Shown here: in pieces, positions 17,936 to 19,644 of the stretch
How the letters are laid out: every line of letters starts with the position of its first letter
Numbering within the stretch: the first letter of the stretch is position 1
From: Spirochaetia bacterium UBA6919
GTDB lineage: Bacteria > Spirochaetota > UBA6919
Length of the DNA stretch: 64,000 nucleotides
NCBI GenBank assembly: GCA_002450905.1
Contig: DKAT01000049.1
Location: 11,554-75,553, forward strand
Direction of reading: 5' to 3'
Notes under the pieces: generated by a model
The model's input: only the letters and a program-made list of their open reading frames with translations
What the model was told of the DNA's origin: nothing
Databases searched by the model: none
Made by a program: the position numbers and the translations under genes

Positions 17936-19018
17936 CACCATAAGTTGAGATTTATAGGGATATTTATAATAATTTTATTAACTTATTTTCAATCATATTC
18001 AAATGACAATAAGCAGATTATAGTTGATAAATCACAAAAAGATAATGTGATACCATTTAATGTGCGTTATAAAATAGCTGAATATGAACAAAACCGTCAG
18101 ATATCATCACCGTTAAGTATATCAAGCCGTGATATATTGTGGGAATTTGGTAAAAATGGTGAATATGTGGATATGATCATCCGTAAAAAGTGGGGGATTC
18201 GATCGGTATTATTAACCAACATGTATTATGGAGATAAATTTATAAAAGATTATGGCGATAAAGCTTATGGTCTTCGTAGCCGTAAATATAATTACGTTAA
18301 TGGAAATGAAGTACGATATGTCCATAAAGGTTTTGTAGGAAAGAGACAGCATTTATTTTTCCTAGTTGATTCTAATCCTGAGCGCCATAGTGTTTTTGGA
18401 TGGGCTTTTAGAATAAGGATACCACGTGTTGTAGAGTTTGGATATAAGACTGCTGGAGAGAATTTTGGTATTCTCACATTTGAAAAGGGAATCACCATTA
18501 ATTTGAGAACCTATGCAAGAAAATACGCTGATCACAGGGGGAAATTCATGAATACCCCCATCCGCATCAATCTTTCAAGAGATGAATACAATGAAAAGAT
18601 GAAACCCTCCATAATTAAATTAAAAGAATATTATCAAAAGAATTATAAAGTAGTTATGGTCAAATTTACAAGCCAGATCGATTATATCAAATACTTCTTA
18701 ATAAGAGATATTTATGAATCTAAATATTTTAGAAAGATTAGTTTCACATCCCACGATAAAATAGGTCATAAAACAGCTATTGTTCTTCGGGCAGTAAAAA
18801 AACAAGGTGGGGATATTATGATAACAGCCTTAATCTATTTTAAAATTGGGAGTTCAGAAAAGGATTATGATATCTCAGCCATAGATCAGAAAAATCGTGT
18901 CTCCAAAACATATATTTCAACCACAGTGAAGCAATATACTCCACGACATTCTGAAAATAGGAATAAATCTATTGAGAAAAATGGAGATGATGAAGTGATT
19001 TTTGATGAACAAAAGTAA
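17936..19018 (+). CDS. Secreted hypothetical protein; start uncertain (17825 in the ORF track, or the Met at 17936 before the hydrophobic leader)
   Basis: Leader segment MHHKLRFIGIFIIILLTYFQS, followed by a long K/Y-rich soluble domain with no recognised motif. Confidence 0.45.
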   Translation, partial: HHKLRFIGIFIIILLTYFQSYSNDNKQIIVDKSQKDNVIPFNVRYKIAEYEQNRQISSPLSISSRDILWEFGKNGEYVDMIIRKKWGIRSVLLTNMYYGDKFIKDYGDKAYGLRSRKYNYVNGNEVRYVHKGFVGKRQHLFFLVDSNPERHSVFGWAFRIRIPRVVEFGYKTAGENFGILTFEKGITINLRTYARKYADHRGKFMNTPIRINLSRDEYNEKMKPSIIKLKEYYQKNYKVVMVKFTSQIDYIKYFLIRDIYESKYFRKISFTSHDKIGHKTAIVLRAVKKQGGDIMITALIYFKIGSSEKDYDISAIDQKNRVSKTYISTTVKQYTPRHSENRNKSIEKNGDDEVIFDEQK

Positions 19019-19644
19019 TTATCACTTAACATATATTAAGATTTTTTTCGTTCTCCTTATGGGAATGGGGGGACTTATTATGAGTTCCTCCATATATCCA
19101 ACTGGATATGTTTATAAAATAAAATATTTTCAATTACAAAAATGGGATGAAAAAAAAAAGAATATTCATATGCTTTCGAATTTCCATCGGATGAACTGAA
19201 TAACTATCCAAGTTATTATATCGTCTATTATGGCAAAGATAATCAGTTACTCTTCACAAGACGATATTTAAATCGCACTTTAACAACACAATACTATTTT
19301 TTTAGAAATAAACCACAGATCGCAAAAATCTTCTTTTACAAAAATCAAAGAAAATATCATGTTATTGTATATAGAAAATATGCAATCATCGCAAAAGAAT
19401 TATTTTATGATATATTAACAGGACGGCTTAAAAAAATTATATATTTTCGTAAAGATGGTGAAACCATTTTGAGAATAGATAAATTTGATCATGGATTTTT
19501 GAGAATCACAATAATTTATTATAGAAGTGGGGCTAAAAGAAGTCAGACAGAATATTTTCATGGGACTAAAATTTATTATAACAAAAGGGGGAAGATTATT
19601 TTAATCAAAAGATTTATACCCAAACGAATCAAGATAGACTCTTA
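19002..19644 (+). pseudogene. MORN-variant-like repeat lipoprotein gene interrupted by a frameshift in an A10 homopolymer (19150-19159)
   Basis: Frame 1 (19002-19199, with a signal peptide) stops shortly after the A10 run. A second frame stays open from the A-run to the TAA at 19642-19644 and encodes YYGKDNQL / IYYNKRGKI repeats. Eleven A's would fuse the two frames into one protein of about 213 aa. Confidence 0.55.

Follow-up and report, generated by a model that had tools for sequence, protein, structure and literature searches.

Replication slippage makes homopolymer runs hypermutable (PMC2831843, PMC1088944), and in Listeria monocytogenes the poly(A) run in the 5' part of inlA mutates about 1000-fold faster than point mutations arise (PMC2831843). 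Runs of nine or more A or T are slippage-prone, also for RNA polymerase (PMC1088944), and the A11 run in tssM1 of Citrobacter rodentium gives rise to mRNAs with 10–15 As in which the frame is restored (PMC4256274). AAA-AAA sites, for their part, support 25–60% −1 frameshifting under overexpression in Escherichia coli (PMC1851650). Here, we describe a gene that is split at a run of this kind in a 64,000-nucleotide (nt) stretch of DNA from the Spirochaetia bacterium UBA6919 (contig DKAT01000049.1, positions 11,554 to 75,553; this whole stretch is the window, and all positions below refer to it). The gene spans 19002-19645 and is interrupted at a tract of ten As (A10), where eleven (A11) would leave it intact. 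On balance, and with modest confidence, we read it as a genuine, recent loss-of-function frameshift at a mutational hot spot, the gene being OFF, perhaps leakily so, and not part of a selected switch. The features on which the argument turns are the following.

19002..19199, + strand: frame-0 open reading frame (ORF), comprising the signal peptide and first beta-strand, 12 out-of-frame codons and a premature TGA (19197-19199).
19150-19159, + strand: A10 homopolymer and site of the frame change, with G on either flank; the intact length would be A11, coding Lys-Lys-Lys in a beta-turn.
19151..19645, + strand: frame-2 continuation, 164 codons plus TAA (19643-19645), the conserved beta-hairpin-repeat body.
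19154..19160, + strand: A_AAA_AAG heptamer (X_XXY_YYZ type), taken straight from the sequence and phased with frame 0.

The locus resembles inlA of L. monocytogenes (PMC2831843) in that the gene for an exported or surface protein carries an early poly(A) run in which a change of one nucleotide, reversible in principle, truncates the product. It differs in that strain variation and a raised switching rate were measured for inlA, whereas none was observed here, and in that its tract is longer (10/11, against 7/8 in inlA). With tssM1 (A11; PMC4256274) and with Shigella mxiE (T9) and insertion sequence (IS) elements (PMC1088944), it shares a run of at least nine As ahead of a premature stop, with one additional A restoring the long frame. 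In those systems, however, experiments demonstrated both the slippage and a requirement for the two products, and related species conserve the frameshift, whereas the present case is known from DNA alone and its homologues are in frame and have no run. Finally, as in −1 frameshifting of the dnaX and IS3 type, the identical A_AAA_AAG heptamer is correctly phased, with the −1 frame entering a long ORF; unlike those sites, it lacks a stimulatory structure downstream, a Shine-Dalgarno-like element at a suitable distance upstream, and conservation.

The upstream ORF begins with TTG at 19002 or ATG at 19005, its start overlapping the stop (19016-19018) of the preceding gene, and its product of 65 amino acids (aa), MMNKSNYHLTYIKIFFVLLMGMGGLIMSSSIYPTGYVYKIKYFQLQKWDEKKKNIHMLSNFHRMN, ends in ...QKWDEKKKNIHMLSNFHRMN*, the TGA ending 40 nt past the tract. 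Frame 2 is closed upstream by a TGA (19148-19150) and open from 19151, with its first ATG, GTG or TTG only at 19469, that is, with none for 106 codons; lacking a start codon before that point, it cannot be an independent gene. Addition of one A yields GAA AAA AAA AAA GAA TAT and fuses the two frames into a single protein of 214 aa (213 aa from the ATG), in which the motifs YYIVYYGKDNQL and KIYYNKRGKI are both present. The chance that 164 codons stay open at the local base composition is approximately 1.7e-6. Codon usage, modelled on 38 window genes, points to frame 0 up to the tract and to frame 2 beyond it: the frame-0 ORF scores +0.17 in frame versus −0.36 and −0.22 off frame, and the continuation +0.20 in its own frame. 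For the 12 frame-0 codons that follow the tract, codon usage already prefers frame 2, and their score in frame 0 is that of non-coding sequence. An earlier note on this DNA had proposed much of this arrangement, and its coordinates for the upstream ORF and the tract, the stop 40 nt beyond, the overlap with the upstream gene's stop, the union of both frames by A11 into about 213 aa and the repeat motifs in the second frame were all reproduced; it rightly had the second frame open from the tract but ended it at 19644, one base short of the end of the TAA.

An exhaustive phmmer (HMMER) search of 1.84 billion cluster representatives with the joined protein as query identified four relatives with significant scores, P0001-P0004, which are 191-232 aa long and 28-38% identical to the query (E = 7e-36 to 6e-20); each aligns in one stretch across the junction (query residues 21-211, 15-211, 12-210 and 38-213, respectively). 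Two further intact orthologues lie beside homologues of the upstream operon partner at two related loci (L027 and L029), bringing the homologues to six, all of them distant (28-41% identity). All six are uninterrupted single genes with the same spacing at the junction, and none is a pair of genes, so that the earlier suggestion of one gene split at the A tract, with A11 as its intact length, stands. Specifically, W48, coded upstream of the tract, and Y55, coded downstream, are invariant and always spaced as W-x6-Y. As A11, the window would read WDEKKKEY; the four relatives read WDSKNKSY, WNRPKNRY, WKQESKSY and WDIDTQRY, and the further orthologues WDNIKKEY (L027) and WNSDNKEY (L029). This spacing is restored by A11 only (A8 would give W-x5-Y), which identifies the region as one ancestral gene that is short of exactly 1 nt, in the tract or close to it.

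Residues 1-53 of the frame-0 product align with the N-termini of the homologues, invariant W48 included, and the frame-2 part aligns with them end to end. Of 31 columns invariant among the four homologues, 22 are retained in the whole protein (20 of 28 in the downstream part), and the other changes at invariant columns are mostly conservative. The identity of the joined protein to its homologues, 28-38%, is similar to that between the homologues themselves (30-41%). The region 19002-19645 is thus a single ancestral gene shortened by 1 nt and not a pair of genes, and, with 164 codons open, codon usage switching at the tract and these columns kept, the frameshift is its sole lesion. No intact 213-aa version was found among approximately 15 billion predicted proteins, where the best match is 38% identical, a word-index protein search with the joined protein returned no matches, and contig scans of metagenomes with the protein and with an alignment (A1) recovered only two JGI contigs that were already known.

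The A10 tract is genuine in the DNA, and a second, independent dataset agrees. A contig of the Logan assembly of SRR5324714 is 100% identical to window positions 15797-27782 (11,986 nt), A10 included; this contig (L013) may share its reads with the window's own NCBI assembly. A contig from another metagenome (L026; ENA ERZ925368, run ERR688355, project PRJEB7840, contig k127_1075357), for which data, submitter and assembler all differ from those of the window, also has A10 and matches window positions 18780-23705 over 4926 nt with no gap and one single-nucleotide polymorphism (SNP). This sole difference, 21655 C>A, replaces Pro by Gln in FlgC and is either a strain SNP or a metagenome consensus error. 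Elsewhere in the window, A9 or T9 runs at 15408, 37919 and 51088 lie inside uninterrupted ORFs and the other genes checked carry full-length Pfam domains; therefore, there is no general homopolymer problem in the assembly. A literature search for SRR5324714 and PRJEB7840 found no paper.

The tract itself is within chance expectation. Two A10 or T10 runs are observed in the window versus 6.2 +/- 4.1 in dinucleotide-preserving shuffles, so that long A/T runs are not enriched there and, if anything, depleted, and no other coding tract of at least 10 nt was seen in the window. The only other A10 of the window, at 32427-32436, is intergenic; it lies 10 nt past the stop of a 67-aa flbD-like ORF (32214-32417) and 44 nt before motA (32480), with an A9 at 32175-32183 nearby. 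At the junction, the four relatives have the codons AGC AAA AAC AAA AGC, AGG CCT AAG AAT AGA, CAG GAA TCT AAA TCT and ATT GAT ACT CAG AGA, and the two further orthologues AAT ATA AAA AAA GAA and AGT GAT AAT AAA GAA. None of the six homologues has a long homopolymer run at this site, and the tract is lineage-specific.

We favour the following course of events. In an AT-rich lineage (the GC content of the window is 33%), a Lys-rich beta-turn (E-K-K-K-E) would have come to be coded by (AAA)3 between GAA codons, that is, by G-A11-G, and one A would then have been lost, most likely through replication slippage, to leave A10. From A10, translation departs from the conserved frame after Lys53 and ends 13 codons on, so that the genomic allele specifies only a 65-aa stub. 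Addition of an A by RNA polymerase, or a −1 ribosomal slip on A_AAA_AAG, would probably still yield a minority of full-length protein. A −1 slip on the heptamer makes GAA at 19160 the next codon, in the conserved frame, and because such an in-phase slip gives exactly the A11 protein, and slippage has been published for comparable runs, the A10 allele is probably leaky and not null. Replication slippage could also restore A11, which would make the allele reversible in principle. We infer the mode of A loss, leaky rescue and a lack of adaptive switching; the lack of a run in homologues, the lack of A10 enrichment, the lack of downstream RNA structure and the absence of the gene from one related locus (L028) speak against a selected device. 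As it stands, this is an ordinary homopolymer frameshift, and it illustrates how a Lys-rich turn can become, in an AT-rich lineage, an A11 run that is fragile and then breaks. An annotation should give 19002-19645 a single entry, that of a frameshifted gene (pseudogene or frameshift allele), in place of two small ORFs or empty spacer.

Several considerations weigh against a simple loss of function. For this organism there are just two independent consensus sequences, from nearly the same strain, and an ON/OFF polymorphism could easily be missed in them. The undamaged downstream frame is equally expected under phase variation or slippage-based decoding. Moreover, a shared OFF length in both samples is as compatible with a maintained, recoded frameshift as with a fixed null allele.

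Slipped-strand phase variation, which the earlier note had put forward, would mean that an A10/A11 tract is kept for reversible switching between ON (A11) and OFF (A10) and that the assemblies sampled the OFF state. The tract is long enough for hypermutability, a change of 1 nt toggles the frame between the full protein (A11) and the 65-aa stub (A10), the tract sits within the gene's first quarter, as does that of L. monocytogenes inlA, the product is predicted to be exported (a signal peptide, modelled as a helix at residues 5-23), and the gene bears no second lesion. We nevertheless regard such a contingency locus as unlikely. Length polymorphism is lacking, with A10 in the window, in Logan SRR5324714 and in ENA ERZ925368 alike, all of them consensus sequences of near-identical strains; the tract is missing in all six homologues; the window has, if anything, fewer long A/T runs than expected and no second coding tract of that length; and at least one relative (L028) does without the gene. 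The proposal thus found no support in the uniform OFF length, the lineage-specific tract or the homopolymer statistics.

Under a second alternative, the out-of-frame A10 would itself be functional, with transcriptional slippage (+1 A), with or without −1 frameshifting, setting the ratio of the 65-aa stub to the full-length protein. A10 is above the threshold of approximately 9 nt for slippage by RNA polymerase (PMC1088944, PMC4256274), and one added A opens a long conserved frame with W-x6-Y, which is the placement seen in genes that use transcriptional slippage. The heptamer also stands in the correct phase with the long conserved frame at −1, the downstream frame is intact, and the same out-of-frame length recurs in two independent samples. 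The heptamer is, however, no sign of selection because deleting one A from GAA(AAA)3GAA creates it automatically, and its context is absent from all six homologues, which are read in one frame by standard decoding. RNA folding near the heptamer was compared with shuffled sequences (z = −0.68 for 19161-19220, −0.87 for 19161-19260 and +0.09 for 19130-19260), and a dedicated frameshift stimulator downstream was rejected, the folds being no better than those of shuffles. By eye, no Shine-Dalgarno-like element is present 10-14 nt upstream of the heptamer, only a GGGA 6 nt before it. The two samples, furthermore, represent almost the same strain (1 SNP in 4.9 kb) and are uninformative on evolutionary maintenance. 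Maintained recoding is, in our view, distinctly unlikely, and we give only slight credence to the specific proposition that the organism relies on slippage for a fixed low ratio of full-length secreted protein to 65-aa signal-peptide stub. If expression did depend on slippage, this would be a new natural case of recoding in an uncharacterised operon; more generally, A10/A11 switching or slippage-based expression, if true, would add a modest new example from a little-studied lineage and provide a handle on a rare two-gene secreted-protein module.

That A10 is a homopolymer sequencing or assembly error, the true genome having A11 and an intact gene, was the other possibility raised in the earlier note, and we judge it very improbable indeed. 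Homopolymers of 10-11 nt are classic sites of indel errors, the evidence comes from assembled consensus sequences, and the reads behind the Logan contig are probably those of the window assembly. Against this, the separately submitted and assembled metagenome, one SNP apart, has A10 too, no intact version turned up among the predicted proteins searched, and other A9/T9 runs within genes are in frame; with A10 in both ERZ925368 and Logan SRR5324714, error is largely excluded. As for two separate genuine genes, one for a 65-aa peptide and one for a protein of about 150 aa, there is next to no chance of this, the existence of two open frames being all that speaks for it, and it is refuted by the missing frame-2 start before 19469 and by homologues that are each one protein aligned across the junction, as it is opposed by 12 post-tract codons that score as non-coding in frame 0.

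The joined product is predicted to be a Sec-secreted beta-hairpin-repeat protein with an OspA/MORN-like fold. Its signal peptide is of the Sec type and coincides with the helix at residues 5-23 of an AlphaFold2 (AF2) model, whose mean predicted local distance difference test (pLDDT) score is 74, with 10-residue blocks over residues 41-90 and 151-210 averaging 79-97. Beyond the helix, the model consists of hairpins in an all-beta array; in one of them, strand 39-49 comes from the upstream frame, strand 54-61 from the downstream frame, and the Lys run makes the turn. There is no lipobox Cys in the N-terminus, MMNKSNYHLTYIKIFFVLLMGMGGLIMSSSIYP, or before the mature part in any homologue; because no family member has one, the protein is not a lipoprotein, contrary to the earlier assignment, and the label 'lipoprotein' is to be avoided for 19002-19645. 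The likeness to the single-layer beta-hairpin repeat proteins of the MORN, DUF2963 and OspA type is one of fold, not of family: sequence identity to those structures is 4-11%, the MORN model of Pfam gives no match, and OspA, unlike the protein here, is a lipoprotein. Pfam DUF2963 is matched by one repeat (residues 136-163; 24.8 bits against a cut-off of 22.6) and in two of five family members, a weak similarity at the level of the repeat only. Sequence searches of the PDB with the A1 and A2 profiles gave nothing meaningful. Paralogy with the genes at 4574-6365, also suggested earlier, was not borne out: in BLASTP, 5685-6365 is matched at E = 0.031 over a 34-aa repeat motif and 4574-5503 at E = 4.4, and when the window is searched by tblastn with the joined protein, the gene itself is the only match and no second copy appears. 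The peptide EYSYAFEFPSDELNNYPSYYIVYYGK is a tryptic peptide of the downstream frame.

Two genes on the upstream side belong to the same setting.

17933..19018, + strand: upstream operon partner, predicted secreted protein of 361 aa, its stop overlapping the start of the broken gene.
16991..17770, − strand: divergently transcribed gene of 259 aa, with 38-46% identity by tblastn and alignment in L017, L014 and L020.

By gene order, the broken gene is the second in a rare conserved two-gene operon. In six of seven related loci, a homologue of the broken gene follows a partner of 366-411 aa on the same strand, with its start overlapping the partner's stop or within approximately 50 nt of it; in the seventh, L028, the partner is present and the homologue absent. 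The partner family is itself rare, with only 12 homologous clusters and one distant vWA-domain match among 5.8 billion protein clusters. The partner of the window is 43-60% identical to the 12 homologues and 44-53% identical to the partners at the tested loci. One cluster is labelled as a 'Spirochaetes bacterium' metagenome-assembled genome (MAG), and the distant vWA protein as 'Treponema sp.'. A Pfam search with the partner gave no match. Its AF2 model (pLDDT 75) has an N-terminal helix, the signal, followed by beta-sandwich domains; the attempt to read a function from this model was abandoned, as it returned only generic two-beta-sandwich (Fab-like) matches with template modelling (TM) scores of 0.2-0.3. 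The partner's start is called in two ways, as TTG at 17825 (397 aa; NCBI) and as ATG at 17933 (361 aa; Logan), and only the 361-aa form begins with a signal peptide as in the homologues. Together, positions 16991-19645 outline a conserved module that is rare and has three genes: one divergent, of about 260 aa, one for a secreted beta-sandwich protein of 360-410 aa and one for a beta-hairpin-repeat protein of about 210 aa. It is recognizable at L014, L017, L019, L020, L027 and L029, with two of the contigs coming from JGI metagenome records.

On the other side, the convergent neighbour (19647-20705, − strand) codes for a DUF6866 protein in which the N domain is matched at E = 9e-53 and the C domain at E = 3e-28. 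Among GTDB species genomes, its detectable relatives (32-39% identity) come from Nitrospirota/Thermodesulfovibrionia MAGs that lack both synteny with this locus and a homologue of the broken gene. A promoter and terminator scan of 17600-20900 gave no more matches than shuffles, and an Rfam scan of the window detected two tRNAs only. Farther downstream, fliG is not where it is usually found: the 260 nt between fliF (22379-24118) and fliH (24379-25293; Pfam FliH E = 8e-27), the latter followed by fliI, leave no room for it. The window carries the flgB-to-fliA flagellar operon, which contains flbD.

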